A stretch of 64,000 nt of DNA from a virus. Positions 3,192-63,034 of this stretch are shown here, in pieces. Within the stretch, counting starts at the first letter, position 1, and each line of letters opens with the position of its first letter. The notes below the pieces were generated by a model. That model saw nothing but the letters and a program-made list of their open reading frames with translations. It had not been told where the DNA came from and did not search any database. The stretch is from positions 42,558-106,557 of the IMG/VR virus record IMGVR_UViG_3300012662_000001, one strand, 5' to 3'. Position numbers and translations under genes: made by a program.

Positions 3192-3875
3192 ATGAATTCA
3201 GAGAACTACTATTTCGTGTTTAAGGATATGAACAGTTCCTGTGGACGTGTCAAGGTTATGACATACCCCATTGAGAATCCAAGCAAGAACGCCCTTAAGA
3301 AAAAGGCCAAGAACATCATTGACAACGCTCAGAAAGCAGGAATGCGGCTGGCTCTGCTGGAAGCCTATCCAGTAACTGAAAATGTATCTCAGAATCTACC
3401 GAAGCTGTCACGTCACACCAGAAATGAGCACCTTTACAAATATGAAATTAATATGGGTGACATCCGTAGTGACAGAACCATTCGTGTTGACATCTATGAG
3501 TGCAGCACCGCTCCATATCTTCTCAATGAGAAACGTATCAAGGTTGTGTCTGAGGAATATGTGCAGAACGAGATTCGCAACGGCTATGAGATACTTGGAA
3601 TCGCCTTTATGGGCGAAGAACAGTTTGTCACCGAGCCTATTAGTGACAGTGTGGTGGAAAACTCTCGCAAATCGTCTAAAAAGGACGAATATGTGTGGGT
3701 TAAGGTCAAGGACGGTGATGACGGTAACGGCATTAATTGGATTCCGGCTCGCAGAACCTCCAACGGTGAGATTGTGTCCTTCGTGGGTCTTATGTTCACG
3801 GACACTCCGAAGGAGGACACTCGCTCGTTCACGGACTGTCCAGTTCCTGGATACGTTATTACTACAACGATGTAA
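3192..3875 (+). CDS. hypothetical protein
   Basis: Long ORF bounded by terminator hairpins. Confidence 0.5.
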   Translation: MNSENYYFVFKDMNSSCGRVKVMTYPIENPSKNALKKKAKNIIDNAQKAGMRLALLEAYPVTENVSQNLPKLSRHTRNEHLYKYEINMGDIRSDRTIRVDIYECSTAPYLLNEKRIKVVSEEYVQNEIRNGYEILGIAFMGEEQFVTEPISDSVVENSRKSSKKDEYVWVKVKDGDDGNGINWIPARRTSNGEIVSFVGLMFTDTPKEDTRSFTDCPVPGYVITTTM

Positions 3876-7312: not shown

Positions 7313-8266
7313 CTATAGTTGTGAAAATATGTGTTTCAGTAGAATGCCAACGAAGTTCACGTCCCAGCCGTTGCCAGCTCTGTTCCAGAGTTGATTGGGT
7401 GTCAGTCCGGCATAGTCAAGTTCACCGTCTCTAAACCCCATAAATCTGAATCGTTCATCAGCGGACATACGTCTGACAATTTCTCTTCCGTCACGTGGCG
7501 GCTCAACCACATAGAAAACGTTGTGTTCCTCCAGTATGGTTCCAGAGAGACCGTCCGTGCGAACCTTGCGATTGTAGAGGTCGAGATTGGCGGCTTCAGT
7601 GACCTGAAGCTGATTGCCGAGCCTGTACTTCTCTTTGATGTACTGTATACGCTTATCACTAAGATACAGTGATGGGTCTGGGTGCTCGTCAAGAAGATCC
7701 TTGAAGCGCAGACTAGAAGGACACTTCGATGGAACAATACTGAACCCCTCCGGAAGACCTCCAAGCCGTGCGAATATCCAGACACGTTCCCTGTTCTGCG
7801 GTATGCCGTAGTCCTTGCTGTTCATAAGGCCGTAGGCGATATCACCATAGCCAAGCTCCTTGAATGCGTCTTTGATAAGGTTAAATGTCTCTTCAAACTT
7901 CCTGGATAGGAAGCCCTTGACATTCTCCAGAAGAACATACTTCGGCTTCTTAACGGAGCACACATAGATGATGTCAGCGAAAAGTGTGCCACGACCATAG
8001 CGGTCTCTTTCTCCTTCCTGATCACCTATGAGGCTGAACGGCTGACACGGAAAGCCGCCTGTGAACAGGTCAAAGTCAGGCAGCTCCTCTGGATTCAACT
8101 TGGTGATGTCACCGTAGTTCCTGATGTCAGGGAAGTTAGCGGCCAAAAGTTTGTTGGCATCCTTGTTGATGTCGGACTGACCCACTACCTTAAACGGTAT
8201 TCCGGAGCGTCTTAGACCGAATGACGCTCCACCGTATCCTGCGAATGTTTCAAATACTCGTAGCAT
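7313..8266 (-). CDS. dcm: DNA (cytosine-5)-methyltransferase
   Basis: Motif I FETFAGYGG, motif IV GGFPCQPFS, motif VI LLENVKG, motif VIII QNRERVWI, motif X GNGWDV. Confidence 0.9.
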   Translation of the reverse strand: MLRVFETFAGYGGASFGLRRSGIPFKVVGQSDINKDANKLLAANFPDIRNYGDITKLNPEELPDFDLFTGGFPCQPFSLIGDQEGERDRYGRGTLFADIIYVCSVKKPKYVLLENVKGFLSRKFEETFNLIKDAFKELGYGDIAYGLMNSKDYGIPQNRERVWIFARLGGLPEGFSIVPSKCPSSLRFKDLLDEHPDPSLYLSDKRIQYIKEKYRLGNQLQVTEAANLDLYNRKVRTDGLSGTILEEHNVFYVVEPPRDGREIVRRMSADERFRFMGFRDGELDYAGLTPNQLWNRAGNGWDVNFVGILLKHIFSQL

Positions 8267-8604: not shown

Positions 8605-8654
8605 GTCATCTTTCTTGGAAATCCAAGGATTTTATCAAGAATTTTCTAAAAAAT

Positions 8655-9446
8655 CTATTCGTCCAAAGATGGGTTTTTATTACTCATACAGCCGTTATCT
8701 GTAACCTTAAATCTTATGCCAATAACACGAGCCCTTTTCTTGGCAATCACCTTTTTAAGAATATATTCATACTCGAATGTAAGCCTACATCCTCTATCAT
8801 CAATCTCCTTTTTACATTCCTTAATATAGTCCGTAACAAAGCGATTAGTGTCTATCTGTTCTGGACAGTCCAGCCGCTTGCGAAGTTCCTGCAAGTCCGC
8901 ATCCCAAACTCCAGCACCATATTTAGGATGCTTGCGGTTAAGGTTTTCTGACAAATAAAGGTACAAATTCATAGATGTAGGCCGTTGAAGAGCCATAAAA
9001 GATTGAACACAAAAAGAAGCATAACCTGTTTTCTTGGAAAAGTCCAACAACCATCTAAGAGAACGTGGTGGAATTCCCACCCAATATCTTCCATCCTTAT
9101 TTAGAAGAGTGTAGAATAGAGGAAATGTAGCCTTTCTACCTTGTTCATCCACTTCATCTATGACGTTAATCTGCGTCATCTTTTCAAGTAGAGATCTTAC
9201 ACTGCCATTATGAGACATTACATATTTAGGTTCGATCTCTACTTCAAATTCAGAAAGGCTGTTTAGTGGAAAAATTTGTTTTAACCTTTCTGTGTCAAGA
9301 GTTTTCCAGTCCACTTCTTCATTTCCTGGAATAAATTCCTGCAAGGCTTCCACTACAACAGCCCAACAGCGTTTCTGTCGAGCAGAACTGTATTTTGTCA
9401 CATCTCTTGTTGCACGTTTCGTTGTGCGTAAAATTCTTTTGCTCAT
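8655..9446 (-). CDS. replication initiator, winged-helix Rep (plasmid Rep_3/RepB-like); ATG at 9446 preferred
   Basis: The pattern ...YWVGIPPRSLRWLLDFSKKTGYASFCVQSFMALQRPTSMNLYLYLSEN...LQELRKRL...FVTDYIKECKKEIDD...IGIRFKV resembles iteron-binding initiators. Iterons lie directly upstream. Confidence 0.6.
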   Translation of the reverse strand: MSKRILRTTKRATRDVTKYSSARQKRCWAVVVEALQEFIPGNEEVDWKTLDTERLKQIFPLNSLSEFEVEIEPKYVMSHNGSVRSLLEKMTQINVIDEVDEQGRKATFPLFYTLLNKDGRYWVGIPPRSLRWLLDFSKKTGYASFCVQSFMALQRPTSMNLYLYLSENLNRKHPKYGAGVWDADLQELRKRLDCPEQIDTNRFVTDYIKECKKEIDDRGCRLTFEYEYILKKVIAKKRARVIGIRFKVTDNGCMSNKNPSLDE

Positions 9447-9466
9447 TTCGTTTGTAATTTGATGCA

Positions 9467-9474
9467 CAAATATA
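9467..9474 (-). promoter_or_regulatory. -7 promoter box (TATATTTG on the minus strand) for the rep gene
   Basis: CAAATATA on the + strand, 20 nt upstream of the ATG at 9446. Confidence 0.5.
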
Positions 9475-9510
9475 CAAATTATTTTCATAAACTATAATCC
9501 GTTCGTCTGT

Positions 9511-9590
9511 GGGGGGTTTTACACCTCTATTTGGGGGGTTTTACACCTCTATTTGGGGGGTTTTACACCTCTATTTGGGGGGTTTTACAT
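9511..9590. repeat. iterons: 3 perfect plus 1 partial tandem copies of the 22-bp unit GGGGGGTTTTACACCTCTATTT; putative origin of replication
   Basis: Copies at 9511-9532, 9533-9554 and 9555-9576, with a partial copy at 9577-9590. These are followed by TTCTGTAAA x2 and an AT-rich stretch. Confidence 0.8.
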
Positions 9591-9664
9591 TTCTGTAAAA
9601 TTCTGTAAATGAAATAGTTATCGGGAAAAGAGGCCTCCTGTAATAGTAGGGGTAATAGATATTG

Positions 9665-9736
9665 GGTAATAGTATGATTGTTTATTGATAGTATTACTCC
9701 TAAAGTCGTAATACATATCACAATCATACTATTACC
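9665..9736. repeat. perfect 17-bp inverted repeat (GGTAATAGTATGATTGT / ACAATCATACTATTACC) with a 38-bp spacer, plus three GTAATAG half-sites
   Basis: Arms at 9665-9681 and 9720-9736 are exact reverse complements. GTAATAG also occurs at 9640, 9652 and 9666. Confidence 0.75.
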
Positions 9737-9785
9737 TGAAATAGAAGGGAAATTAAGAAAAGGGAACCGAAACGTCACATCTGAA

Positions 9786-10083
9786 AATGGAGGGGCTTCG
9801 AAAGGGGACTCCTCCCTTACGGTCGGAGGTCTTGTCTTCCCCTTTCTACGCCCAGGAGAGGGTCGACAGAGCGACCCTGTTTCCTTATAGGAGAATCCTG
9901 TATGAAATGCCGTTATACAAACAGTCGTGTCAAGGCCGCAAAGAATTCAACATTCTTCCCTTCACACGCTTGAGAACGGATAGCATAGATGGGCAGTGCA
10001 GTTCCCTATGAAAGTCGTTTATGGAGCAGACATAAAAAGACACATAGCGAAAAGACGGTTGGTTCGATTCCACCTCCGTGGCC
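9786..10083 (+). ncRNA. candidate structured non-coding RNA or DNA element ending in a tRNA T-arm-like motif; identity unknown
   Basis: The segment is GC-richer than its flanks. Local hairpins occur at 9789-9815 (GGAGG...CCTCC) and 9859-9878 (AGGGTCG/CGACCCT). GTTGG-TTCGATT-CCACC-TCCGTGG lies at 10058-10081. Only short ORFs are present. Confidence 0.25.
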
Positions 10084-10327
10084 TAATTATTTCGGCCTTG
10101 TGCTGTAACGTGTTTTGTATTTGATTTGTGATTAGGTGAATTTGTCAGTTTTTAGACGATTTAGGCGATGTTTGATGTTGGTTCAGTGTAGTTGTCAGGT
10201 TTGTGATTAGTTTGTTCCTATATTGCGTAGAATTTTAGTTTGGATATCATATTTACGAAAAATTGAGTTTTATCAGTAGTTTTAGAGTTTACAGAATTTT
10301 TCTTTTTCGTGTCATTATGCAGGTCGT

Positions 10328-10369
10328 CCACCGTCTGGGAAGTAAGGTTCTCCACGGTGGGCATTTTTA
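10328..10369 (+). terminator. intrinsic terminator-like hairpin
   Basis: CCACCGT...ACGGTGG stem followed by GCATTTTTA. Confidence 0.45.
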
Positions 10370-10412
10370 TGAAAAATCGTGAAAAGTTCATTGGAAATTT
10401 CAGAAAGGCCAC

Positions 10413-10420
10413 TATATTTG
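10413..10420 (+). promoter_or_regulatory. -7 promoter box TATATTTG
   Basis: Upstream of the ATG at 10503; heads the rightward morphogenesis block. Confidence 0.5.
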
Positions 10421-10502
10421 TAGTGTGATAAGACAGAGTGATAGTTCTTTTAATAGGCTTGTTCTGCCTATATTTGTATCACGAAATTTTAATTCTTTAG
10501 AT

Positions 10503-41940: not shown

Positions 41941-42854
41941 TGAATACAAAGGTTTTTGAAAGATTTCAGACTATCACAGGGTATGACATTAAATTATATC
42001 TTGAGAACTTTGTATTGTTCTGCCGAAATTCCTTTCCTACGATTGTTCAATATTACAATGGACAGATAGTTGACACTAAAAAAGTGTTCAGCGAATTGGA
42101 CTACCTCTTGACTCAGACGGAAACGATAGAATCTCTCTTTGTCTTGAAGGCTAATCAGATGGATACTATAGACTACTGGGAATTGCTGGATGTGTTTACA
42201 AATAGTCAGACAAAATTATGGACGATAGACAATTCTTCCAAATGGTTTAGAAGTGCCATTATAGGTCGGTATGGGAACAACACTGTTGTTCAACGTACAT
42301 TGAAGTCCAGGGAGACATTCGAGAATGTCATCAACTCACTTGGAATGACTGAATCTGATGATTCGTGGGTCGATATAGCGAGACCGAATCAGATTGAGGA
42401 GGAGGACTACACTCCCGATGAGGGCTCCTCTATGTTCAAGATTAATATAAAGACAAGTGGTGTGTCATTAATTGACAACATTGTTGATTCATTGAGTGAA
42501 AAGAGCATTCTTGGAAAGGATATTGATAAGAAGTTTACATTTTCGGGAAATGATTTGGCGACTGTTGAGTATGATGATGCTGTTCGACAGGCACTTGACA
42601 CCATTCTTAATAGTATACAGGGTTCCATTCCGGAATTTCCGGAATACGGCTTTGCTGACACGGCAATAGGTGTTTCAATGAAGGCTCTCTCCTATCCTAC
42701 CATTATAAAGAATATGATGGATATGTTCAGCAGAGACGGTCGATGGGATGAGGTGAATATTCTTGATTTATACGTTAAGGATGACAATGTGTTCTGTAAG
42801 ATTAATGCACGGACTGTGACAAATAATTACATCATAACGAATGTTCAGATATGA
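41940..42854 (+). CDS. baseplate wedge protein with gp25/GPW-like C-terminal domain (tentative)
   Basis: IPEFPEYGFADTAIG...IIKNMMDMFSRDGRWDEVNILDL; position directly upstream of baseplate J. Confidence 0.45.
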   Translation: MNTKVFERFQTITGYDIKLYLENFVLFCRNSFPTIVQYYNGQIVDTKKVFSELDYLLTQTETIESLFVLKANQMDTIDYWELLDVFTNSQTKLWTIDNSSKWFRSAIIGRYGNNTVVQRTLKSRETFENVINSLGMTESDDSWVDIARPNQIEEEDYTPDEGSSMFKINIKTSGVSLIDNIVDSLSEKSILGKDIDKKFTFSGNDLATVEYDDAVRQALDTILNSIQGSIPEFPEYGFADTAIGVSMKALSYPTIIKNMMDMFSRDGRWDEVNILDLYVKDDNVFCKINARTVTNNYIITNVQI

Positions 42855-51032: not shown

Positions 51033-51692
51033 ATGAATTCCACGATTAGATACATAATTGTTGGCGATAGTGAGACTGGAGGTCTTCCTAATAAGGACAA
51101 ACAGGCTTTCTATGACATTGCATTATGTGAATTTGCCTTTGTCGTCATAGATATTCAGGAAATGAAAGTGGTGGAGGAATGGAGCACTCTTTTCAGACCC
51201 TATAAGGACAATCTTGAATACAACCCCAAGGCACTTGAGGTCAACGGTCTTACGGTTGAGCAGTTGCAGGAGAGTGGTGATGACTTGAAGAACATTTACA
51301 AGGAGATGGTTACACTGTTTAAGAAGTATAAGAATCCTCGTATAGGGGCAGTGCTTGCAGGGCATAATTTTCAGCCGTTTGATATGCCTTTCTTGATTAA
51401 TATGTTTGAGTTCTGTGGCGACAATATCTGGAACTATGTCACATTTGTGGAGGATACGATGAAATTGGCTTGGTATCGTGCCACGGAGCAGGAGAATTAC
51501 AAGCTCGGAACGTGCTGTCGTATGGAGGGTGTTGACTTGGTTGATGCTCATCGTGCCCTTGCTGACACCAAGGCAAATGCTCTGTTGCTTCTAAAATATA
51601 TTTCCTATCTGCGTGGCTCTGGGGAGGGTTTAGATGTTGCGGCTCCAAGGATGAAGCCGTCTTCCTTTAGAGAGACGTTTCAACTTGTGTAG
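51033..51692 (+). CDS. DnaQ-like 3'-5' exonuclease (DEDDh)
   Basis: Exo I IVGDSETGGL, Exo II LAGHNFQPFDMPFL, Exo III HRALADTKA. Confidence 0.8.
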   Translation: MNSTIRYIIVGDSETGGLPNKDKQAFYDIALCEFAFVVIDIQEMKVVEEWSTLFRPYKDNLEYNPKALEVNGLTVEQLQESGDDLKNIYKEMVTLFKKYKNPRIGAVLAGHNFQPFDMPFLINMFEFCGDNIWNYVTFVEDTMKLAWYRATEQENYKLGTCCRMEGVDLVDAHRALADTKANALLLLKYISYLRGSGEGLDVAAPRMKPSSFRETFQLV

Positions 51693-51694
51693 TG

Positions 51695-54600
51695 ATGATT
51701 GAGTTTAATGAGAATAATAGTCTTTCTTTTCGGCAGTTGGATAGCATTATAGACACTGTGACGAGAATAGTACAGAACCTCCCTGTAAAGGCCGTAAATC
51801 AGCTTATGGAAGCATATAAGGGAGATCAGGACGCTATGCTGTCAGAGATATTTCGTCAGACGGAGAATGTTCTGAAGTTGAACACCACACTGGAGACGGA
51901 GCGTTTGTCCTATGTGGATCAACTGACTGAGAGTATGGATGATTCTCTGAAAATAATGTCATATAACTACTTTAAGACCACAATGCTTCCTAACTTTAGA
52001 CAGGGGTGGAGGAATCTTGAATGGGGTAATATGATTCAACTGTATCCGAATAGTGGCTATCTTGCGGCTCGTTCTCACGGAAAGTGTTTTCTGGCTGGAA
52101 CTCATATATTGATGGCTGACTGGACAGTGAAGAGCGTGGAGGATATCTATCCTGGAATGGAAGTGATGGGTATGGACTTCACTCCGAGAAAGGTTCTTAC
52201 ACGGCATATCGGTCGGTCACAGATGTTTACCGTGCATCAGGAGAACGGTATTTCCTATACCGTGAATAGATTTCACATTCTCTGTCTATGGGATACGAAG
52301 AGGAAGCACTATGTTGAGGTTCCGATGGGAAACTTCTTGAAGTATCCTCAGGAGAAGCAGAATAGGTTTAGGGGGTATAGAGTGTTTTCGAGTGACAATC
52401 CAATACTGGAATATTCACCTATAACCGTTGAATCGTATGGTGATGGCTCATATTATGGCTTTGCCTGTGATGGTGACCATAAGTTTCTTCTGGAGGATAA
52501 TACAGTTGTTCACAACTCCTATGAATTCTGTATGGCGTTTCCTTTGTGGAGAATGTATTCCTATCGTAGACCGAACTTTATGAAGCCTGATATTCCGGAT
52601 AATAAGAATAGAAAGGAAACGTGTATTATAACCAATACGGAAACACTCGGTAAGGAACATCTGGATAAGGTTAAGGAGGAGATTCATACCAATGAAGCAC
52701 TTTCAGCGGTGCTTAATCCGAACGGCAAGGCTTCTCTTGGTGCTACTGGCTTTGAATGTGAGAATGGATCCAAGTTGCATCTTAGAGGAAAGGACGGCTT
52801 TATCCGAGGTCTTCACGTGGGGGCGGCTGTGTCTGATGACCTCCCTGATGATAGTTCCATTTATAGTCTTGAACAAAGAGAAAAATTGAGAGATTTATTC
52901 AAGGGTGCTATCACGCCTATTGTGGAGCCGTATGGTTACAATATCGTGGACGGCTGTGTTACGCCTGATACACTTGTGCTAACGGCTGATGGCATTAAGG
53001 AAATTGGGCAGCTTGCGCCTGTTGGTCTTGACTCTGAACGTGGTTACTATGACTGGAAAGGTCAGGCGTATAATGGTCAGAATCTGGAGAATGTGTTGTC
53101 TTATTATGTGAATGGCAATACTGAGACAATTCGTGTGATACTTGACAGAGGGTTTGAATTAGAGACAAGTCACGTTCATCCAGTGCTTGTGTGTGACACG
53201 GATGGTAGGTTTGTGTGGCGTAAGTGTGAGGATCTTTCTGTTGGTGACTATGTGGCCGTGAAAATTGGTTCTAATGTATGGGGCAAGCCTTTGAATATTG
53301 ATAGAGAGGAATTGTATCAGATGGGAATGTGTGTGGCTGATGGGTGCTTGAGTGAAGATAGAATAACAATAGCCAAAAAGGTTGATGGAATACGAAAGTA
53401 CTTTATTGATGAACAGGGCTGGCATCCTGTGAAAGGTGCTACACACGATGATATTTACTTTAGGTGGTATAGACAGGAGAAACGTGAACTTTGGCATTCT
53501 CTTGGTTATGAATATGGTCTGTATAGTCACACTAAATCCATTCCAGAGAAAGTGCTTTCAGCTTCCAAGGCTGACTTGTGTGCATTTCTTTCAGGGTATT
53601 TTGACGGTGATGGATGTTTAACAAGAAATGATAGAGATCATTATCATATCAGTTGTTTTTCTGTAAGTAAACGACTAATTCAGCAGATTCAGTTCGTGCT
53701 TTTGAATATGGGCATAGTTTCACACGTTGCCTATAAGAAATGTCAATCCACTGAAAAGGTTAAGACAGATAGAATGGGATATCTATTGCGTATAAATTCT
53801 CAGAATATGATTCAGAAATTTATGCGTGAAATTGGTTTTCCTCATTCGGGCAAGGCGGATAAATATGTTGACTCAGAAGTTAAGGTGAATAATGTCTGTC
53901 AATACGGTGTGCCTTATCAACGTGACTTGTTTAAGCGAATAAGAAAACAGATTCACTTGACTGATGAAGATAAGAAGCAGTTTGGGTTGGAATCATTTAA
54001 GACACAGAATAGAACAGAGATTCCTATCTATACTGTGAGTGAAATGCAGAGATTGTCCAAGTGGGTTGAAAATTCAGAGTTGCGAAATGAAGATGCTTCT
54101 ATCTTTTTGAGTAATGCAAGATTAGGGTATGTTTTCTTACCTGTGAAGTGCTTGGAACAGGGGCAGAGTGTTACAGTTGATTTTTCAATGCAGGAGACAC
54201 ATTCCTTTGTTTCCAATGGAATTATTTCTCATAACACGCCGTATCAGGCCCAAGATCTCTATTATGAACTGAAGCAGGATCCAAAATTTATGGTATTTGA
54301 ATATCCAGCGATATTTCCTGATGGTAGACTTCTGGCTCCTGACCGTTTCACGTTTGACAAGTTAATGGAGGAGAAGAAGTCCGTTGGTACGCTTGTGTTC
54401 AGTCGTGAATATCTTGTTGTTCCCATTTCGGATGATTCCACCATATTTCCTATGGAGATATTAATGCGAAGCACGATAGGAATGGAGAATGTGCGGCTTG
54501 TGGATAACATTGAATCGTTTCCATTCAAGTTGTCCAGAGTGGTTGTGGGGTGTGACTTTGCCGTGTCAGGAAACGTGGGTGCTGACTACACCTGTTACAC

Positions 54601-55075
54601 GGTGTGGGGGAAGGACTTGAACGGTTCCTATTATCTTCTGTATATCTATCGGGAAAAGGGTCTTTCCCATAATGAGCAGATAAACAAGATAGAGTATTTG
54701 AATACGGTGTTCAAGCCGAATGAGATTGTGGTGGAGAACAATGGCTTTCAGTCCATTCTTGCTGATATGTGCGTGCAGAGAGGAATAAGGAATATATTTC
54801 CGTTTACCACCACTTCGGGGAACAAGAAGGACTTGCGAACAGGGTGGGCGTCACTTGCGGCCTTATTTGAGCGAGGTGACATACGATGTCCATATCACCC
54901 TGACACACGACAGAGAATAGACACTATGTTCGGGGAGTTTACATCCATTGCATTCCGTTCTGATAGAGGTACGTTGGAATCCATCAGTGGTCACGATGAC
55001 ACGGTGTCTTCCTCGTTTATGGCAATAAACAGATTACGTGAATCGGCTCTTCAGATCAAGGTCGATGCAGTATAA
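51695..55075 (+). CDS. terL: terminase large subunit precursor containing two inteins
   Basis: The spliced Walker A is LAARSHGK/SYEF. The nuclease-domain C-terminus reads VVGCDFAVSG...VVENNGFQS...GHDDTVSS. Confidence 0.8.
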   Translation: MIEFNENNSLSFRQLDSIIDTVTRIVQNLPVKAVNQLMEAYKGDQDAMLSEIFRQTENVLKLNTTLETERLSYVDQLTESMDDSLKIMSYNYFKTTMLPNFRQGWRNLEWGNMIQLYPNSGYLAARSHGKCFLAGTHILMADWTVKSVEDIYPGMEVMGMDFTPRKVLTRHIGRSQMFTVHQENGISYTVNRFHILCLWDTKRKHYVEVPMGNFLKYPQEKQNRFRGYRVFSSDNPILEYSPITVESYGDGSYYGFACDGDHKFLLEDNTVVHNSYEFCMAFPLWRMYSYRRPNFMKPDIPDNKNRKETCIITNTETLGKEHLDKVKEEIHTNEALSAVLNPNGKASLGATGFECENGSKLHLRGKDGFIRGLHVGAAVSDDLPDDSSIYSLEQREKLRDLFKGAITPIVEPYGYNIVDGCVTPDTLVLTADGIKEIGQLAPVGLDSERGYYDWKGQAYNGQNLENVLSYYVNGNTETIRVILDRGFELETSHVHPVLVCDTDGRFVWRKCEDLSVGDYVAVKIGSNVWGKPLNIDREELYQMGMCVADGCLSEDRITIAKKVDGIRKYFIDEQGWHPVKGATHDDIYFRWYRQEKRELWHSLGYEYGLYSHTKSIPEKVLSASKADLCAFLSGYFDGDGCLTRNDRDHYHISCFSVSKRLIQQIQFVLLNMGIVSHVAYKKCQSTEKVKTDRMGYLLRINSQNMIQKFMREIGFPHSGKADKYVDSEVKVNNVCQYGVPYQRDLFKRIRKQIHLTDEDKKQFGLESFKTQNRTEIPIYTVSEMQRLSKWVENSELRNEDASIFLSNARLGYVFLPVKCLEQGQSVTVDFSMQETHSFVSNGIISHNTPYQAQDLYYELKQDPKFMVFEYPAIFPDGRLLAPDRFTFDKLMEEKKSVGTLVFSREYLVVPISDDSTIFPMEILMRSTIGMENVRLVDNIESFPFKLSRVVVGCDFAVSGNVGADYTCYTVWGKDLNGSYYLLYIYREKGLSHNEQINKIEYLNTVFKPNEIVVENNGFQSILADMCVQRGIRNIFPFTTTSGNKKDLRTGWASLAALFERGDIRCPYHPDTRQRIDTMFGEFTSIAFRSDRGTLESISGHDDTVSSSFMAINRLRESALQIKVDAV
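52085..52516 (+). mobile_element. mini-intein 1 (144 aa) inserted in the terminase Walker A P-loop
   Basis: Starts CFLAGTHILMADW, ends YYGFACDGDHKFLLEDNTVVHN, followed by Ser+1. Excision restores GKS. Confidence 0.8.
52955..54235 (+). mobile_element. intein 2 (427 aa) with LAGLIDADG homing endonuclease domain
   Basis: Starts CVTPDTLVLTADG. DOD motifs LYQMGMCVADGC and AFLSGYFDGDGC are present. Ends THSFVSNGIISHN, followed by Thr+1. Confidence 0.85.
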
Positions 55076-55095: not shown

Positions 55096-56634
55096 ATGCA
55101 GACAAAGAAATTTGATGCGGTGTTGAGTCCGACATTTGTTGAGGAAATGCTTCGGCTCGCATATTCCAACAAGACATTCGCAAGGCTTGTGGTTGAGAAT
55201 GTTAATGTAAGCAATTTCCCTCGTGAGCTTGGTGCGTGCAAGGCGATGCTCAAGGTTCTGGCTGACAACTATCGTAATGGGGTGTTCGCTACCTTGGGAA
55301 TGGTTGAGATGGCTTTCCCGAAGAGTGAGGAAGTGGCCAAGAAGATTGCTGAGATAAAGAATATGCCTGTTCCCTCCTATGACGGTATGGTTAGGCAGTT
55401 GGAGACATTCATTCGTCGGCAGACGTTTGTGGCGGTTCAGCACGAGGTCAGTGATATGTATAACGAGGGCAAGCCTGATGAAGCGATGGACTTGTTGGGG
55501 CGCAGAATGTCTGAGATACTATCCTTTTCTCTGGAGCAGGATGCAAAGGGAAAGTTTTCCAGAATATATAGAGACTTCGTGCGTAATATAGCGATTGCGC
55601 AGCAGAAGCAGGATGACGAGGTCAAGCGACCAAAGATTCCGCTTGGCATCACGTCTCTGGATGATCTGACTGATGGCGGTGTTCCTCGTCAGGACATTGT
55701 ACTTTGGATTATGCGCTCCGGAGTGGGAAAGTCCACAGCCTTGAAGTATCACGCTTGGTACAATACGTCAATATCACATAACCACTGTCTTCACATTCAG
55801 TTGGAGGGTGGTGAGCAGGAAGCAGTTGTAAAGTTTGACCAGATGCTTGCACAGACCACCTATGCAAAGGTATTGCGAGGTGAGATTACGGCTGACACTC
55901 AGAAGCGTGTGCAGTCTCTCATCAGGAGGGCTGTTACGGTGAATTCTGATATAGACGTGTATGCCTCTGAGGAGATGATGGAAATGACAATAGCGGATAT
56001 TGTTAAGGTGGTGGAGGACTATTATCTGGAGTACGGCTATTATCCTGACTTGATAACACTGGATTCCATTGACCTCTTGCTTACAGGTCAGAACAACAAG
56101 ATAGACTATGATCCTAATTTTATCAAATATAGACTTCAGAAGTGTGCACAGCGGCTCAAGGATATAGCCACGAAGTATGACTGTGTCGTGATTACGGCCA
56201 CTCAGACGTGTGATGTTCCTATGGAACTATGGAATGACCCATCTCGTGTCATAACACGTCAGCACACAGAGGGGGATAGAACACTGGTTAAGCCGTTTTC
56301 CTTTGTGTTTACAGGTAATGTGACCAACGAGGAGGGTGCTCAGAATGTTATGCGTATCTTTTGTGATAAACTTCGAAATTACCGAAATAACGGAATAATT
56401 GTGAAGATACCGACCAACTATGAGAACGGCTTCTTTTACGACCTGAAACGCTCTGTAAAGGAGGAACAAGTGCTTGATATGAATGCTATGCTGAAGATGG
56501 ACAGCGCTCCTACACGCAGAAGACGCACGAGTGATGGCAGACAGACGGAGACAAAAACGGTTGAGGTGTCAAGCGGTGTGTTCGTGATTCAGAATGTTGA
56601 GAAGAAGAAAGTGCCACAGAGGAGGAATGCCTGA
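55096..56634 (+). CDS. DnaB-like replicative DNA helicase (RecA-fold C-terminal domain)
   Basis: IPLGITSLDDLTDGGVPRQDIVLWIMRSGVGKST (Walker A) and DLITLDSIDLL (Walker B). Confidence 0.7.
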   Translation: MQTKKFDAVLSPTFVEEMLRLAYSNKTFARLVVENVNVSNFPRELGACKAMLKVLADNYRNGVFATLGMVEMAFPKSEEVAKKIAEIKNMPVPSYDGMVRQLETFIRRQTFVAVQHEVSDMYNEGKPDEAMDLLGRRMSEILSFSLEQDAKGKFSRIYRDFVRNIAIAQQKQDDEVKRPKIPLGITSLDDLTDGGVPRQDIVLWIMRSGVGKSTALKYHAWYNTSISHNHCLHIQLEGGEQEAVVKFDQMLAQTTYAKVLRGEITADTQKRVQSLIRRAVTVNSDIDVYASEEMMEMTIADIVKVVEDYYLEYGYYPDLITLDSIDLLLTGQNNKIDYDPNFIKYRLQKCAQRLKDIATKYDCVVITATQTCDVPMELWNDPSRVITRQHTEGDRTLVKPFSFVFTGNVTNEEGAQNVMRIFCDKLRNYRNNGIIVKIPTNYENGFFYDLKRSVKEEQVLDMNAMLKMDSAPTRRRRTSDGRQTETKTVEVSSGVFVIQNVEKKKVPQRRNA

Positions 56635-57668
56635 TGAAGTACGATAAGGAAAATATCATTGACGAGCTTGGGCTTGTCCCATTCGGTTCTCAGGGGTGGC
56701 TGTCGAACAAGGAGATGGTCTGTCCATTCTGTGGTAAGTCGGGGAAGTGGGGTGTTATATTTAATGACACTGGAGGGGCGACATTTCATTGCTGGAAATG
56801 TCCACGCAAAACCTCTCTATATGAATTTCTTAAGAAAATAGATAGGGCGGATCTTGCAAAGGTTACATATACTGTCAAGCCTGATGAGGTGTGTCCTAAA
56901 ATAGGTGAGGAGCAGACAGAGGAATCACAGTGGATGATTTCTACGGAGTTGCAACCGTTGGAACTGAAACCTGTTGCACTTCCATTACGACTGAAACCAC
57001 TTGTAGGTGATGAGTACCTTGAAAATAGGGGATTCAATGACTATCATTATAGACTGTTTGAACCCTCCTATACCAATACGCCACTGGAACCGAAGTTGAG
57101 AAATTATATTGTGTTTAAGATGAAGATGGACGGTGTGTGTGTAGCGTGGTGGGCGAGAAGTCGCTATTCAAAGGAATGGCATAAGGAGAATCTGGAACTT
57201 TATAAGCAGCACAAGGCTGAACTTGTGCTTCGGTATAGAAATTCTGAGAGCAACTTTCAGGACTTGCTTGGTGGCTATGATCAACTTGTTGCGGATGTTA
57301 CACAGACGGTGATTCTTGTTGAAGGGATCTTTGATATGATAAATATCACAAATATTCTGGGACTTGCTGATGTAAGTGATGTCAAGTGTTGTTTTACATT
57401 CGGCAATAGCATTGGTAGAGGACAGATAGAATCACTCTTAAGGAAGAAAGTTAGGAATATAGTACTTTTGTACGATGACGGGACAATAGATGAGAGCCGT
57501 GAGGCCGCCTTACGAATGAGAGAACTGTTTGATACAGTGATGGTGGCGGCTATAAGGCGTAGAGGTGTTGATCCTGGAAATATAGATATAGACTATTTGA
57601 CGGAGGTGCTGGGATCAGCCTGTGATCCATTGACGTTTTCCTATAATAGGCTTGAAATGAAGATTTAG
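56634..57668 (+). CDS. DNA primase (zinc finger plus TOPRIM)
   Basis: CPFCGKSGKW...HCWKCPRK, VILVEGIFDMINI and IVLLYDDG. Confidence 0.75.
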   Translation: MKYDKENIIDELGLVPFGSQGWLSNKEMVCPFCGKSGKWGVIFNDTGGATFHCWKCPRKTSLYEFLKKIDRADLAKVTYTVKPDEVCPKIGEEQTEESQWMISTELQPLELKPVALPLRLKPLVGDEYLENRGFNDYHYRLFEPSYTNTPLEPKLRNYIVFKMKMDGVCVAWWARSRYSKEWHKENLELYKQHKAELVLRYRNSESNFQDLLGGYDQLVADVTQTVILVEGIFDMINITNILGLADVSDVKCCFTFGNSIGRGQIESLLRKKVRNIVLLYDDGTIDESREAALRMRELFDTVMVAAIRRRGVDPGNIDIDYLTEVLGSACDPLTFSYNRLEMKI

Positions 57669-58472: not shown

Positions 58473-58492
58473 CACATAAATTGAGTGTAAAT

Positions 58493-59143
58493 ATGAAACA
58501 AGGTAAAGAGTATAATTGTATTTGTCCAATTTGTGGTGTAGCTTTTTACACAAAGCCTTCCAGATTAAAAAGAACTAAGAATGGTGTATGCTGTTCTATG
58601 TTATGTGGTCGTAAATTGAGAGCGAAATTTATGCTTGGTATGGGGAATCATCAATATGGTTTAACTGGAAAATTAAATTCGAGCTATAAGCATGATGAAA
58701 AAATAAATAATGCAGGGTATCGAATGATAAATGTTCCAGGACATCCAAAAGGAGCTAAAGATCGCAGGTATGATGAAATGACTTATATCTTGGAACACAG
58801 GCTTGTAATTGAACAAAATTATAATTTCTTTCCTAAAGAGTTTTTCGAAATGAAAAATGGTTGGTTTGTTTTGAAGGATTGTTATGATGTTCATCATATA
58901 AATCATGATAAATTGGATAATCGGTTAGAAAATTTAGTGATTATTACCAGAGGGGAGCATACAACACTTCATAATTTTGAAAAACAAATAATAAGGGACT
59001 GTAAGACAGGGCGTATAATTGGCGTCATTAAACAGGGTGAATTGCTGGAAAATCCAGAAGTGGACAATCAGCAGCCAAGTCAAGATGGCAACATTTTGAA
59101 AGGTTCAACGACTAACAACCGAACCCATGAATGTGGGCAGTAA
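58493..59143 (+). CDS. intron-encoded HNH homing endonuclease
   Basis: VHHINHDKLDNRLENLVIITRGEHTTLH plus an N-terminal CxxC...CC...C zinc finger. Confidence 0.8.
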   Translation: MKQGKEYNCICPICGVAFYTKPSRLKRTKNGVCCSMLCGRKLRAKFMLGMGNHQYGLTGKLNSSYKHDEKINNAGYRMINVPGHPKGAKDRRYDEMTYILEHRLVIEQNYNFFPKEFFEMKNGWFVLKDCYDVHHINHDKLDNRLENLVIITRGEHTTLHNFEKQIIRDCKTGRIIGVIKQGELLENPEVDNQQPSQDGNILKGSTTNNRTHECGQ

Positions 59144-59260
59144 TGTTGACACGAGTGCCCTGTGCAGGTAAAACTGTAAAGATATAGTCTGAACTCTATG
59201 TATAACTTAATATTGAAGATAGAGAATATTTGGATAAAGAGCCAAATAGATAACAAAATG

Positions 59261-59496: not shown

Positions 59497-59504
59497 TATA
59501 TTTG
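59497..59504 (+). promoter_or_regulatory. -7 box within the second copy of TTATATTTGCATTGTGAAA
   Basis: Identical 19-mer to 12107-12125. Confidence 0.55.
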
Positions 59505-59540
59505 CATTGTGAAATTTTAACAACTAAATCAAAAACGATT

Positions 59541-60140
59541 ATGGAACAGAAAGAATTGTCCGTAAGGATGAAGATCCGCAAGTTCAAGAATGACGCTGAC
59601 AAGTTGTCAGAAATCATCGAATCAGAAACGTCCACTGAACTGGAGAAGAAAGTGGCCTCAGAGTACCTTGCCAAGTTGCAGGAAGCCGAGCAACCTGAAC
59701 AATCAGAAGCACAGATAGCCGCTCCGGAGGAGACGACACTCTTCCCAGAGGCAGAAGAGGAGAAACCAACTCCTAAGAAGGAGGAACCTATTAGTTCTGA
59801 ACTTACTCCTGAGGAAGTTGAACGTCTTGATGCGGCTGAGAAGAAATTTGATGAGCGTCAGGCCAATCGCAAGACACCGTCCAAGGCGGACAAGAATATG
59901 CGTGAGGAACGCAAGAAGATACGTTCAACCGCCAATCTGCACGAGGGTAAGAGAGAGAACCTTGAGGAATCCACAGAGGTTCCTGGTCTGAAAGTCGGTT
60001 CCACTGTAAAGGTGGGTGACGAGGAGTGTTCCGTTATTCGTGTCTATCGTAGCACTGACGGCAAGGAGAAGTGTATGATCAAGATTGGAGACGGCAAGAC
60101 TGTCAAGAAGCGTGTCACTTCAGTGACACTCGTAAAATAG
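59541..60140 (+). CDS. hypothetical protein: charged disordered region plus small C-terminal beta domain
   Basis: ORF; ATG at 59541 chosen because the ATG at 59502 lies inside the promoter box. Confidence 0.5.
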   Translation: MEQKELSVRMKIRKFKNDADKLSEIIESETSTELEKKVASEYLAKLQEAEQPEQSEAQIAAPEETTLFPEAEEEKPTPKKEEPISSELTPEEVERLDAAEKKFDERQANRKTPSKADKNMREERKKIRSTANLHEGKRENLEESTEVPGLKVGSTVKVGDEECSVIRVYRSTDGKEKCMIKIGDGKTVKKRVTSVTLVK

Positions 60141-60149
60141 TTAGGTTTT

Positions 60150-60884
60150 ATGGTTACGGATTCAGGAACCATAATCCTTATCAAGGGGGTCAGTGGAAGC
60201 GGTAAATCCACAAGGGTTTATTGCTTCCTTGATTTCTTGGAAAGCATTGGTATGGAACTGAAACCGTACCAATTTGTGAACATACTTGGACAGACGCAGG
60301 AGATAGGTCTATACTCTGAGGAGTTGAATATGCTCTTTTTGGGGAAATTTTATAACGACAATGGTGTTCGTAGATGGCAGGGTCTGGACGCTGTCACAGG
60401 GCGACTGCATACGGCTGAGGGTCTTTCCTATTTTCTGAAATGGGCAGGTCAACATAAACTGAATGTGGTGCTGGAGGGTGCTGGAACTTCCGTGACGTGG
60501 CGATTGCGTCCGATGGAGATATGTGCCGAGTATGAATATCTAAACATCCTTTATCTGGTCTATACGTTTAAGTTGGAGCAGTATGATGACTATATCAGGA
60601 GAATAGAGTATCGTTCCGGTAAGGCTCCGAAAAGCGACGCTATGTGGCGGAAACGTAAGGGGTTTGAATCCGACTATACCCAGACTGTCGCTGAAGCGAA
60701 GGACTTGAATGCGGCAGGAGCGGACATTGTTATCAAGTATAATTTATTTGATGCCGTGCCGTGGGATCTTGGTGTAAGCATTATGCAGTATTTCGGTCTT
60801 GATGAATTGTGCAATGAGTTTAGGCAGTTTGTGGGGAATGGCGGTTACATTGAACAGAATTCTTTTGAAAACATTGGGAAATGA
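60150..60884 (+). CDS. P-loop kinase (candidate 5-hmdU DNA kinase or nucleotide kinase)
   Basis: Walker A IKGVSGSGKST; ATGA-coupled to the next gene. Confidence 0.55.
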   Translation: MVTDSGTIILIKGVSGSGKSTRVYCFLDFLESIGMELKPYQFVNILGQTQEIGLYSEELNMLFLGKFYNDNGVRRWQGLDAVTGRLHTAEGLSYFLKWAGQHKLNVVLEGAGTSVTWRLRPMEICAEYEYLNILYLVYTFKLEQYDDYIRRIEYRSGKAPKSDAMWRKRKGFESDYTQTVAEAKDLNAAGADIVIKYNLFDAVPWDLGVSIMQYFGLDELCNEFRQFVGNGGYIEQNSFENIGK

Positions 60885-61891
60885 GCAGGATAGTTCCAAA
60901 TGACAATCTGACATATTTCTTCTATTGGTGTTGTGAACGAATGAATATATTCTGGAAACGCTACAATGGTGAGAAGCAACCGTGGACTGATGATGAAATA
61001 TTGCGACAGTATAAGTTCACGAATGTGTATCGTGTGCTGGATAGATCAAGTCAGTATATGCTTCGGAACGTTATTTATAACGGTAAGCAGTATTCTTCTG
61101 AGGATATGTTCTTTCGCATTCTACTTTACAAGTATTTTAATCTTCCTGATACGTGGGATGCTTTGATTAAAGAGTTCAGTGATGTTACATACGACACTGG
61201 ATGGGAGAATATTGCACGTTTTCTTGATGATAGAATCAGGCAGGACATCACTATTTATTCCAATGCCTTTATGCTGACAGGGTGGTTTTATACGTTGCCG
61301 AGATATGCGTGCATTCGTGGGAAGTCAAAGCATAGAGGATACTTTGAAGTCTTTAGACAGAGAATATTCGATAACGGCAGGATTGACGTTTTCCTTCGTG
61401 CCACGAGGTTTGAGGAACTGTTTAATCTGTTCAAGGAGTTGGAGCCGTTTAGTGATTTTATGGCACAGCAGTACTGTCTTGACTTAAACTATTCCCCTCT
61501 ATACAATTTTACGGAGAATGAGTTTGTGGCGGTCGGTCCAGGAAGCAGGAGGGGGATTCAGTTTGCCTTTAAGGGGGATCACAAGGATGACGGTGAAGTT
61601 GTTATACGGTGGACACAGGAGCACTTTGAGGAACTGATGACACGATTTTGTCACGATTCAGGTATGGTCTGGAATCCATTGCCGTGGGAGCCAGTGCCGA
61701 CGTTGACAAATATTCAGAACTGTTTCTGTGAACTATCGAAATACGCCAAGGCTATGGGTGTGACATTTAATGGGAAGTCCAGAGGGCGTGTGAAGAATGT
61801 GTATAGTGCATTAAAATCTGAAATTCCTTATATGTTTCCAAGGAAATGGAACGTGGAGATGCCGTTAAAAGGGCAGATAGAAACTTATTAA
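60881..61891 (+). CDS. candidate DNA base-hypermodification protein (resembles the aGPT-pyrophosphorylase / 5-hmdU-kinase-helical families; assignment from recall)
   Basis: N-terminal block IFWKRYNGEKQPWTDDEILRQYKFTNVYRVLDRSSQY; located between the kinase and TS-like genes. Confidence 0.4.
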   Translation: MSRIVPNDNLTYFFYWCCERMNIFWKRYNGEKQPWTDDEILRQYKFTNVYRVLDRSSQYMLRNVIYNGKQYSSEDMFFRILLYKYFNLPDTWDALIKEFSDVTYDTGWENIARFLDDRIRQDITIYSNAFMLTGWFYTLPRYACIRGKSKHRGYFEVFRQRIFDNGRIDVFLRATRFEELFNLFKELEPFSDFMAQQYCLDLNYSPLYNFTENEFVAVGPGSRRGIQFAFKGDHKDDGEVVIRWTQEHFEELMTRFCHDSGMVWNPLPWEPVPTLTNIQNCFCELSKYAKAMGVTFNGKSRGRVKNVYSALKSEIPYMFPRKWNVEMPLKGQIETY

Positions 61892-61906
61892 AAATAAGAA
61901 ACGATT

Positions 61907-63034
61907 ATGTATTTTGAATTTGATAATCTCAGTCAGGCACTTGTTGGTCTGTCGTTGAGTCTTAACGCCAATGGTGTGTGGACAAAGAGGGGAACCAATC
62001 CAGCAGGAAACGGGTGTCTGGAATTTCCGGAAGCGGTTCTTATAAAGATAGAAAATCCATTGAATAGGTATGTCTTTGTTCCGGAACGCAAGTGGAACAG
62101 GACACTTGGGTGGATTGAGTCACTTTGGATTGCCAGAGGGGATAACTCTTTGGAAATGCCGTCATCCTATGTTAAGAATCTGTTGACATTCTCCGATGAC
62201 GGTGAGACAATGCGTGCAGGATACGGTCCGAGGATTCGTGGGTTTGGTGGCCATCTTTGGAATAAGGCTATTCGGGATGTGGATGGTTCAGTGCTATATT
62301 GGATGGAAAAACAGTATGATTCCAGGAATAGTTGTCATAATCTTGGTACGGTGGATCAGCTGAAGTTTGTAGTGGATAAGTTTAAGCAGGATCCAACAAC
62401 AAGAGAGGCCGTCATCACCATTCACGATCCTATGGCCGATGACTTTAATGGTAATGAAATCCTCAGGACGAAGGACACCCCTTGCACTCGTTCCATTCAC
62501 TTTATGATTGTGAACGGCAAGATGAACTGTTATGTGGATATGAGATCCAATGACCTGTTCTGGGGTTTCAGTGCTGTTAACGTTTTCAACTTCACCTTGA
62601 TGCAGGAATATGTCGCTGCGATGGTTGGTGTGCCTGTTGGTGTGTATTTCCATAAGGTGGACAATCTGCATATCTACGAGGGTTCTCTTCCTATGCTTCA
62701 GAGCATAATTGCAGTCAATGAGACGCCACGAGGTGTTGAGGTGTGGTCAGATTGGTATAGATTCTCGGAATGCAGTGATTGGCACGGCTATAAGCATACC
62801 TACAGAACTTTGGAAGGCTTTGATGCACGAATTGGTCTACTGTCCAATTTTGAACGTGGAATGCGTGGTGTTGATGACTTGCCGTATAGTAATGATGAGG
62901 CTCTGGACGAGATAGAAGCCAAGTTCTGGGACGAACCGATGTTTAGGGACTGGGCAAAGGTTATCTATCGCAAGTGGTCAAAGGACACGACCGTGACATT
63001 TGACAATCCGTATCTGACAAAGTTATTTGTCTGA
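61907..63034 (+). CDS. thymidylate synthase / pyrimidine hydroxymethylase superfamily enzyme (candidate dUMP hydroxymethylase)
   Basis: DQLKFVVDKFKQDPTTREAVITIHDP, the catalytic Cys context TKDTPCTRSIHFMIV, MRSNDLFWGFSAVNVFNFTLMQ and DNLHIYE are collinear with ThyA motifs. At 375 aa it is longer than ThyA. Confidence 0.7.
   Translation: MYFEFDNLSQALVGLSLSLNANGVWTKRGTNPAGNGCLEFPEAVLIKIENPLNRYVFVPERKWNRTLGWIESLWIARGDNSLEMPSSYVKNLLTFSDDGETMRAGYGPRIRGFGGHLWNKAIRDVDGSVLYWMEKQYDSRNSCHNLGTVDQLKFVVDKFKQDPTTREAVITIHDPMADDFNGNEILRTKDTPCTRSIHFMIVNGKMNCYVDMRSNDLFWGFSAVNVFNFTLMQEYVAAMVGVPVGVYFHKVDNLHIYEGSLPMLQSIIAVNETPRGVEVWSDWYRFSECSDWHGYKHTYRTLEGFDARIGLLSNFERGMRGVDDLPYSNDEALDEIEAKFWDEPMFRDWAKVIYRKWSKDTTVTFDNPYLTKLFV

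Follow-up and report, generated by a model that had tools for sequence, protein, structure and literature searches.

A divergent Rep_3 initiator gene and its phased iterons as a probable replication origin in an uncultured 106-kb phage genome

We analysed a 64,000-nt stretch of the IMG/VR virus record IMGVR_UViG_3300012662_000001 (record positions 42,558 to 106,557), hereafter the window; positions below are window positions unless they are given as genome positions. The genome carrying the window (G000) is 106,557 bp long and was compared with three relatives (G001, G002, and G003). The locus under study consists of the gene rep2 and the 980-bp intergenic stretch upstream of it, which separates minus-strand genes (to 9446) from divergent plus-strand genes (from 10425). 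Its features are listed in Table 1. A preliminary description of this DNA had reported an open reading frame (ORF) resembling winged-helix Rep_3/RepB initiators, tandem iterons with a partial fourth copy, an AT-rich stretch, three GTAATAG sites, and a perfect 17-bp inverted repeat, and had compared the whole with iteron-type theta replicons. Each of these observations was confirmed, and rep, promoter, iterons, and AT-rich region are arranged as in such replicons.

Table 1. Features of the rep2 locus and two replication genes considered together with it (window positions).
Feature	Position	Strand	Basis or remark
rep2, 263-aa initiator with two winged-helix domains, divergent Rep_3	8655-9446	-	Pfam, PHROG, AlphaFold2 and Foldseek
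Orphan iteron of foreign specificity, 21/22 match to the G002-type iteron	8660-8681	-	Encodes the last rep2 codons (NKNPSLDE and stop)
Imperfect 14-nt inverted repeat (12/14) over the rep2 start codon and leader	9422-9469 (arms 9422-9435 / 9456-9469)		Inverted-repeat search
Putative rep2 promoter and 5' leader	9447-9510	-	-7 box TATATTTG at 9467-9474 (-), read from sequence
Iteron array, 22-bp period: GGGGGGTTTTACACCTCTATTT three times without mismatch, then 13 nt of a fourth copy	9511-9589		Sequence, Tandem Repeats Finder (TRF)
TTTTACA-N4-TGTAAAA: partial fourth iteron and inverted copy of the same half-site	9583-9600		Read from sequence; partly kept in G001
AT-rich spacer from iterons to palindrome	9590-9639		35% GC (9580-9639) vs 44% in the window; helix stability profile
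Putative constant origin core: GTAATAG sites around a 72-nt palindrome (9665-9736)	9640-9736		Sequence, folding, comparison
GC-rich conserved element with several hairpins	9745-9925	+	About 90% identical in G001, 83% in G002
DnaB-like helicase	55096-56634	+	PHROG 19, 5.6e-40
DNA primase	56634-57668	+	PHROG 47, 3.5e-23

The perfect iteron copies occupy 9511-9532, 9533-9554, and 9555-9576, and the fourth agrees over 9577-9589 and then diverges. TRF assigned the array a period of 22, 3.6 copies, 100% matches, and a score of 160, which is the highest of all arrays in the window. The unit GGGGGGTTTTACACCTCTATTT is unique to the array within the 106,557-bp genome, even when up to 6 mismatches are allowed. 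The iterons stand in direct orientation and are phased two helical turns (22 bp) apart. The array lies upstream of the ORF, as had been described, and the gap to the ATG (9446) is 64 nt rather than 65 nt. The motif TTTTACA-N4-TGTAAAA at the far end of the array is a possible candidate for a binding site of a Rep dimer. A 10-nt repeat, GTAAAATTCT (9428 and 9595), was discarded, as it occurs no more often than is expected by chance in a 1-kb region.

The AT-rich spacer is followed by DNA with an even lower GC content (29% at 9640-9740 vs 44% in the whole window). The 40-nt stability values of this region fall at about the 95th-99th percentile of the least stable windows. GTAATAG is found at 9640, 9652, and 9666, and we detected an additional, inverted copy at 9729; these sites represent 4 of the 9 copies in the 64 kb. 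The perfect 17-bp inverted repeat (9665-9681 / 9720-9736) forms the outer stem of the 72-nt palindrome, which folds much better than its shuffled versions (z = -5.3, with 0 of 200 shuffles as good). The core at 9640-9736 is a candidate unwinding or priming element.

The start of rep2 was set at the ATG at 9446 instead of in the longer ORF from 9488, because the homologs begin at the same Met. Rep2 scored above the Pfam cut-off for Rep3_C (PF21205; 24.1 bits vs 21.1 bits, residues 185-247) and matched PHROG 4402, annotated as replication initiation protein (2.4e-11). An AlphaFold2 model built with 15 homologs as input had a pLDDT of 86.5 and a pTM of 0.86. When this model was compared with the PDB using Foldseek, all 46 matches with E <= 0.001 were RepE54 (mini-F), pi (R6K), or Rep-iteron complexes with a DNA unwinding element, and RctB came next. 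The best matches (1rep, 2nra, 8aan, and 7soz) had a probability of 1.00, E = 5e-9 to 1e-6, and TM 0.52-0.68 over approximately 260 aligned columns. A profile of the Rep family found nothing among the PDB sequences, and the fold search alone succeeded. A profile search of 1.84 billion representative proteins gave a compact clade of 29 clusters at E <= 1e-10, with lengths of 250-275 aa in nearly all cases, and beyond it about 500 weaker matches that form a tail. The clade member P0019 passes both Pfam domains (Rep3_N 34.4 bits, Rep3_C 29.8 bits), and P0040 and P0060 from the tail are Rep_3 proteins of the classic kind. The clade is almost confined to contigs of approximately 100 kb from this phage group; tblastn of Rep against phage and plasmid record collections (72,556 plasmid records) gave no match, and neither did the DNA of the rep2 region against the phage collection. 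These results indicate that Rep2 is a divergent member of the Rep_3 (RepE/pi-like) family with two winged-helix (WH) domains, and that by descent and architecture the rep2 locus is a Rep_3 iteron replicon, which is a well-known kind.

To relate initiators to iterons, we drew on contigs from IMG/VR, ENA, Logan, and JGI, in which 15 related loci include enough DNA upstream of rep. All 15 carry an array with a period of 21 or 22 bp and 2.3-4.3 copies, located 60-130 nt upstream of rep, and the sequences are otherwise unrelated. The contigs L001, L004, L020, L022, L024, and L025 come from short-read k-mer assemblies of relatives and break off within the iteron array. Such arrays are thus places where contigs break systematically, and a contig that starts here is uninformative on genome ends.

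In the alignment, the N- and C-terminal halves of Rep recombine independently, and the iteron halves go along with them. The Reps with the common WH2 helix LDCPEQIDTNRF.TDYI have a common distal half, AAAACCCCCC, and the Reps with the common WH1 helix S.KPTLLKM have a common proximal half, AAATCACGCT. The WH1 recognition helix (residues ~78-92) tracks the rep-proximal 12 nt, and the WH2 helix (residues ~192-216) tracks the distal 10 nt. Mantel tests on 10 Rep-iteron pairs gave r = 0.60 (p = 0.006) for the WH1 helix against the proximal half and r = 0.53 (p = 0.0003) for the WH2 helix against the distal half. The crossed controls gave r = -0.09 (p = 0.60) for the WH1 helix against the distal half and r = 0.10 (p = 0.18) for the WH2 helix against the proximal half. 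Rep2 and P0002 are 91% identical, and 9 of the 23 substitutions are found in residues 72-88, where the WH1 recognition helix is predicted together with the residues that lead into it. The change between the two iterons is limited to the proximal half, where AGAGGTGT is replaced by CGGGGCAT and AAAACCCCCCAAAT is kept; the proximal halves are AAATAGAGGTGT and AAATCGGGGCAT, and the other half is AAAACCCCCC. Iteron predictions were recorded ahead of fetching four further loci. The iteron of P0005 was as predicted, and at P0007 the predicted half AAATCACGCT was present and the other half was different. The co-variation recovers in the Rep2 clade what is known from the crystal structures of pi and RepE, in which each WH domain reads one iteron half-site (review PMC4980987). 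The conserved architecture and the two-part co-variation in the 15 loci support the assignment of the 22-mers as the probable iterons, or binding sites, of Rep2.

In G001 (99 kb), the Rep of which is 97% identical to Rep2, the iterons, the spacer, the palindrome, and the following 180 nt are conserved. In G002 (98 kb), a 267-aa ORF oriented like rep2 takes the place of rep2 and its iterons, and its own perfect array (AATAAAAACCCATCCTTGGACG, 22 bp, 2.6 copies) lies 77 nt upstream. This ORF is a remote relative of Rep2 (hhalign probability 94.6% over 220 columns; Rep3_N 21.3 bits, Rep3_C 18.9 bits). The palindrome region is retained beside the G002 cassette, and G000, G001, and G002 agree at every position of its 36-nt centre (9685-9720). 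The flanking sites of G002 read GTTATAG in every copy, compared with GTAATAG, and the outer palindrome arms differ yet stay complementary. We rejected an early reading in which G002 had no rep2 but a 31-nt remnant, with the palindrome independent of the replicon: G002 has a divergent Rep with iterons, and the supposed remnant is an iteron copy. Where rep2 contains the orphan iteron, the G002-type iteron is still found twice in tandem in G001 and at the P0002 locus. We read the orphan iteron as a probable scar of cassette exchange. Such a scar at the 3' end of rep2 would explain why Rep2 is without the acidic C-terminal tail that most homologs have in the alignment. These comparisons show Rep and its iterons as an exchangeable specificity cassette that adjoins a constant core.

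Exchange among close relatives that leaves scars, the persistence of orphan iterons of foreign specificity, and a rapid diversification of specificity, like that of the PLE RepA/iteron modules under nuclease attack (PMC8263062), might also be expected of a captured or selfish plasmid-derived cassette without a replication role. Such a cassette could be a passenger, or an exclusion or incompatibility device that titrates or handcuffs the origins of co-infecting relatives. We consider this explanation very improbable. An intact Rep accompanied by intact iterons is present at least once in each complete relative, the Rep clade occurs almost only on the ~100-kb contigs of this phage group and is absent from the plasmid collection, and the cassette always adjoins the same kind of AT-rich, palindrome-bearing DNA. 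Furthermore, no other initiator turned up in the annotation of G000, which covered only part of the proteins, though the phage brings a helicase and a polymerase.

G000 carries a second module, paralogous to the first, which was not part of the preliminary account; neither were the exchangeable cassette and the constant palindrome/GTAATAG element beside a different Rep in G002. Rep1 (genome 38634-39503, minus strand, 289 aa) is encoded 12.5 kb to the left of rep2, 3.0-3.9 kb before the window, and is 46% identical to Rep2 (BLASTP 1e-83). Module 1 (genome 38634-39641; locus L006) has its own 22-bp iterons, TTACATACAGAAACGAGGTGTA, in 2.3 copies, together with phased TCCCGA repeats, CTATTT repeats, and a hairpin, and is entirely absent from G001. 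A broadened profile found two Reps each in G000 and G002 and one each in G001 and G003, with at least one in every complete relative. Since G001 and G003 have one Rep, one module is enough, and two are no fixed trait of the clade.

Two side observations concern this second module. In the ENA scaffold L005 (104,906 bp), a Rep1-like iteron array (TTACATTGCAAAACGAGG, about 5 copies) is found at 3470-3640, and the Rep2-like gene downstream of it has iterons of its own. This second array has a duplicated hairpin and CTATTT block and no adjoining rep gene, and is apparently an orphan or trans-served origin. In G000, a third-position GC skew of -0.03 (n = 6) was obtained for the plus-strand genes that separate the Rep modules (genome 39.9-47 kb, window about -2650 to 4450), compared with +0.23 to +0.32 for plus-strand genes elsewhere; expression level, recent acquisition, or fork direction could account for this value.

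In regards to the putative rep2 promoter, the -7 box TATATTTG is also present upstream of rep in L005, L022, L024, and L025; it is of the Bacteroidota type and provides a clue to the host. The iterons had been described as overlapping this promoter. The array does abut the -33 region, and it ends approximately 36 nt upstream of the -7 box, so that the described overlap holds only roughly; Rep binding at this position may damp rep transcription. The imperfect inverted repeat over the start codon is only partly conserved in close relatives. It is a possible candidate operator or translational hairpin and would provide another control point. Neither this repeat nor the half-site pair at 9583-9600 is clearly iteron-derived or well conserved.

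The position of the array against the rep promoter, between divergent transcription units, and the autoregulation of Rep_3 proteins as dimers would also suit a Rep2 that is a transcriptional regulator only, with the repeats as operators for the divergent promoters of the 980-bp intergenic region. We find this hardly credible. Rep2 has the full two-domain initiator fold, the repeats are direct and phased at 22 bp and are not palindromic operators, and the architecture of array, AT-rich DNA, and palindrome is conserved. Moreover, the other promoters of the phage (read from sequence at 8612-8629 and 10391-10418) use a different cassette, which is absent from the rep2 region.

Taken together, rep2 and its cognate origin DNA probably form the phage's own replication origin, and one of a working type. 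The phage needs an initiator, because it encodes DnaE, DnaB, primase, and ligase, and because every complete relative keeps at least one Rep. By analogy with RepE, pi, and TrfA, Rep2 monomers would fill the phased iterons, and their binding would bend and melt the adjoining AT-rich DNA (9590-9740). The palindrome may then extrude and serve as a priming or loading signal, as do the single-strand initiation sites of the IncQ oriV. The phage's own DnaB-like helicase and primase, which are presumably the clients loaded at this origin, would then be recruited. The host DnaA is probably not needed, since no DnaA box (TTATCCACA) with up to 1 mismatch was found in 9400-10450.

Several points weigh against this assignment. 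Most Rep_3 plasmid origins have a DnaA box, and the rep2 region has none; such a box is not universal in iteron theta replicons, as the IncQ plasmids do without that requirement. Rep2 reaches only 16.2 bits for Rep3_N (PF01051), under the Pfam cut-off of 22.4 bits; homologs of the same clade score above it (27.9 bits for the G003 Rep, 34.4 for P0019, and 36.5 for P0034), and the alignment of the predicted Rep2 fold with RepE54 and pi extends across both domains. The 10 pairs used for the co-variation form a small and phylogenetically related set, in which the iteron register was picked by eye from the DNA only, and the prediction for P0010 came true in part only, with the AAACGA core in common. 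The GC skew, which had been suggested as a check, does have a local minimum here, which falls at the coding-strand switch and is confounded with it; the skew is therefore uninformative, and the third-position skew of the plus-strand genes shows no sign change at either module. The assignment as an origin rests on sequence comparison and predicted structure. Finally, G000 has two modules, and either of them may be the one that fires.

On the far side of the core, the GC-rich element at 9745-9925 contains a terminator-like hairpin (9859-9878, plus strand). Its consensus fold has 1 compensatory pair only, among 3 sequences, and Rfam gave no match over the region at gathering thresholds. A small RNA and a single-strand initiation signal are both possible roles for this element. 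Further along, a tRNA-like piece (9976-10079) comprises a D-arm, a T-arm, a 5-bp acceptor stem, and a 42-nt insert in the anticodon arm. The T-arms differ in G001 and G002 with compensatory changes (GGTGG/CCACC vs GACAG/CTGTC). This piece, with a T-arm-like part at about 10055-10085, was considered as an attP site and rejected. It scores 19.6 bits with the Rfam tRNA model, under the gathering score of 29; ARAGORN found no tRNA or tmRNA at default or relaxed settings and made inconsistent calls at very low thresholds only; and the exact 3' 23-mer occurs in a single unrelated Syntrophobacteria metagenome-assembled genome and in no gut-bacterial tRNA. The phage also has no integrase.

G000 is rated 100% complete by CheckV and has a terminal overlap of 77 bp. 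The annotated virion genes encode the portal, the major head protein, the tail sheath, and the large terminase, and the replication genes encode a DnaE-type polymerase, an NAD-dependent ligase, the DnaB-like helicase, and the primase. Two further proteins resemble UvrD-type helicases, as judged by eye. The DnaE-type DNA polymerase III alpha is split over two adjacent ORFs of 552 and 975 aa (genome 460-6065, outside the window), the second of which contains an intein (Intein_splicing, Hint-like CIAENS...VVANC). The capsid protein is closest to those of the Bacteroides thetaiotaomicron phages DAC19-23 and SJC03 (35% identity), followed by SPO1-like Bacillus phages; it places G000 in what appears to be a myovirus lineage of virulent type. 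A 5-hmdU DNA kinase gene (PF18723, 1.4e-73) adjoins a thymidylate-synthase homolog at 60881-63034, which suggests that the virion DNA contains hypermodified thymidine. The large-terminase ORF (51692-55075) is unusually long with 1127 aa; the terminase match spans only residues ~420-1120, which leaves the N-terminal 400 residues as an additional domain or a fusion. A group I intron (Rfam RF00028, 64.7 bits, E = 4e-14) is found at 58960-59207 in the nucleotide-metabolism region, between the ORFs 58481-59143 and 59502-60140. A C-5 cytosine DNA methyltransferase (PF00145, 2e-56) is encoded at 7313-8266, two genes downstream of rep2 in the same minus-strand block.

The preliminary description had proposed a phage-plasmid or carrier state, in keeping with the absence of an integrase from the window. 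We take phage-plasmid in the sense of P1, N15, and SSU5 (Pfeifer et al. 2021, PMC7969092), and G000 does combine structural and packaging genes with a Rep_3 initiator. The absence of an integrase extends from the window to the whole genome: Phage_integrase and Resolvase gave no match at E <= 1 in G000. At the same threshold, no match was obtained in G000 for the partition families AAA_31 and CbiA (ParA), ParB_N, StbA_N (ParM), and Tubulin (TubZ), nor for HTH_3 (CI/Cro-type repressor; other repressor families were not searched). Positive controls in known genomes worked for all these profiles but StbA_N, which detected 1 of 14 controls and never above the cut-off. These absences are weak evidence, because partition and repressor proteins of Bacteroidota may escape the profiles. 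Rep relatives, integrated or episomal, were sought in 185,579 prokaryote species with one genome per species, as the earlier proposal to look for episomal copies in host assemblies suggested, and none was found. The carrier state was thus neither supported nor refuted.

A phage-plasmid would use one or both Rep-iteron modules to maintain a low-copy episome between lytic bursts, as P1 does with oriR/RepA or as is proposed for the RepL origins of crAssphage. Among plasmids, Rep_3 iteron replicons represent the classic system with copy control; moreover, neither integrase nor resolvase was found in the complete genome, and gut Bacteroidales phages are known to persist without lysogeny. The two initiator modules of different specificity are reminiscent of the two replicons of P1 and the two repL genes of crAssphage, and the near-zero third-position skew of the plus-strand genes between the modules has a like pattern in the crAssphage report (PMC10983915). 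Nevertheless, we regard a phage-plasmid as unlikely. The genome, complete as rated, yielded none of the partition or CI/Cro-type proteins, weak as this evidence is, and no Rep relative occurred in the species genomes or the plasmid records. The phage brings its own replisome and hmdU-modification genes, and its capsid is most like those of the Bacteroides DAC and SPO1-like phages. G001 and G003 have a single module, so that two origins for two lifestyles are no trait of the clade. An iteron-binding initiator alone does not imply plasmid maintenance, because strictly phage origins use the same principle, as with lambda O and SPP1 G38P.

The closest known systems are the replicons of RepE/ori2 (mini-F), pi/gamma ori (R6K), and RepA (pPS10, pSC101), which share with Rep2 the two-winged-helix fold and with the rep2 locus the direct, 22-bp-phased iterons that adjoin rep, with an AT-rich region on their far side. 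The sequence identity between Rep2 and the solved structures is only 11-18%. Unlike these replicons, the rep2 origin has no DnaA box and no clear inverted half-iteron operator over the promoter; its core contains the 72-nt palindrome and short flanking repeats, there are two modules in G000, and the locus lies in a 106-kb myovirus with its own DnaB, primase, and DnaE. P1 (RepA, and oriR with incC and incA iterons) is, like G000, a tailed phage with an iteron initiator, a second replication module, and no integrase. In contrast with G000, in which the corresponding families were not found, P1 has ParAB/parS, Phd-Doc, the C1 repressor, and Cre/lox. The second replicon of P1, RepL/oriL, is of a different type, whereas the two modules of G000 are paralogs. 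Unlike P1, rep2 has no downstream copy-control array of cognate iterons, only the orphan iteron of foreign specificity.

In function, the rep2 origin can be likened to those of lambda (O/ori-lambda) and SPP1 (G38P; oriL and oriR), in which an initiator binds repeated sites, melts the adjacent AT-rich DNA, and brings the helicase. The protein families differ. In SPP1, a virulent phage that brings a helicase of its own (G40P), one initiator binds both origins, whereas G000 has two different initiators. Lambdoid phages exchange O and ori specificity modules; the lambda iterons lie inside the O gene, whereas those of G000 lie upstream of rep. The oriV of RSF1010 (IncQ) has 3.5 iterons at 22-bp spacing, GC-rich and AT-rich segments, and a large palindrome with single-strand initiation sites for its own primase; it uses its own helicase and is independent of the host DnaA. 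The layout of the rep2 origin is similar, and by this likeness the palindrome at 9665-9736 may be a priming signal, although RepC belongs to another family.

Among the PLE satellites of phage ICP1, close relatives swap the RepA DNA-binding domain jointly with the iterons, and domains are shuffled (PMC8263062). The Rep2 clade is alike in module swapping, and in it the WH1 and WH2 types recombine independently together with the iteron halves. PLEs, however, are satellites that integrate and are not phages, their RepA belongs to the RepA_N family, and the selective agent there is the Odn nuclease. The crAssphage Carjivirus communis has two RepL genes and two predicted origins and was proposed to be a phage-plasmid with two lifestyles (PMC10983915). 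Like G000, it is a gut Bacteroidales phage without integrase that has two plasmid-type initiator genes and near-zero skew between them. Unlike Rep2, its RepL (PF01719) belongs to an unrelated family, and the report describes no iterons (PMC10983915). crAssphage is podovirus-like whereas G000 is a myovirus, and the proposal for crAssphage rests on culture data whereas G000 is known from its sequence.

Beyond the assignment of rep2 as the phage's own origin, we tentatively raise the possibility, which we hold to be rather unlikely, of a plug-in origin. In such an origin, Rep-iteron cassettes of different specificity would be swapped at a constant core made up of the palindrome, the short repeats, and the structured GC-rich element, with WH1 and WH2 shuffled independently, each together with its iteron half. 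In genomes with two modules, these might then serve two modes, for example plasmid-like carriage and lytic amplification, as in P1 and as proposed for crAssphage, or the second module might help in escaping origin-directed attack or incompatibility from co-infecting relatives.

To a well-known kind of replicon, this locus adds a natural two-part recognition code, an arrangement of constant core and swappable cassette, and the presence of two modules in one genome. It provides a concrete candidate origin and initiator for the uncultured gut Bacteroidota myoviruses of approximately 100 kb. The paired variants of helix and half-site make up a small recognition code, which is usable for studies and engineering of Rep_3 specificity and for compatible Bacteroidales replicons. 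The locus also calls for caution, as screens for phage-plasmids rely on a plasmid replicase as a marker, and here this marker sits in an otherwise virulent-looking phage. If one of the modules does support episomal carriage, this would bear on how gut phages persist without lysogeny.

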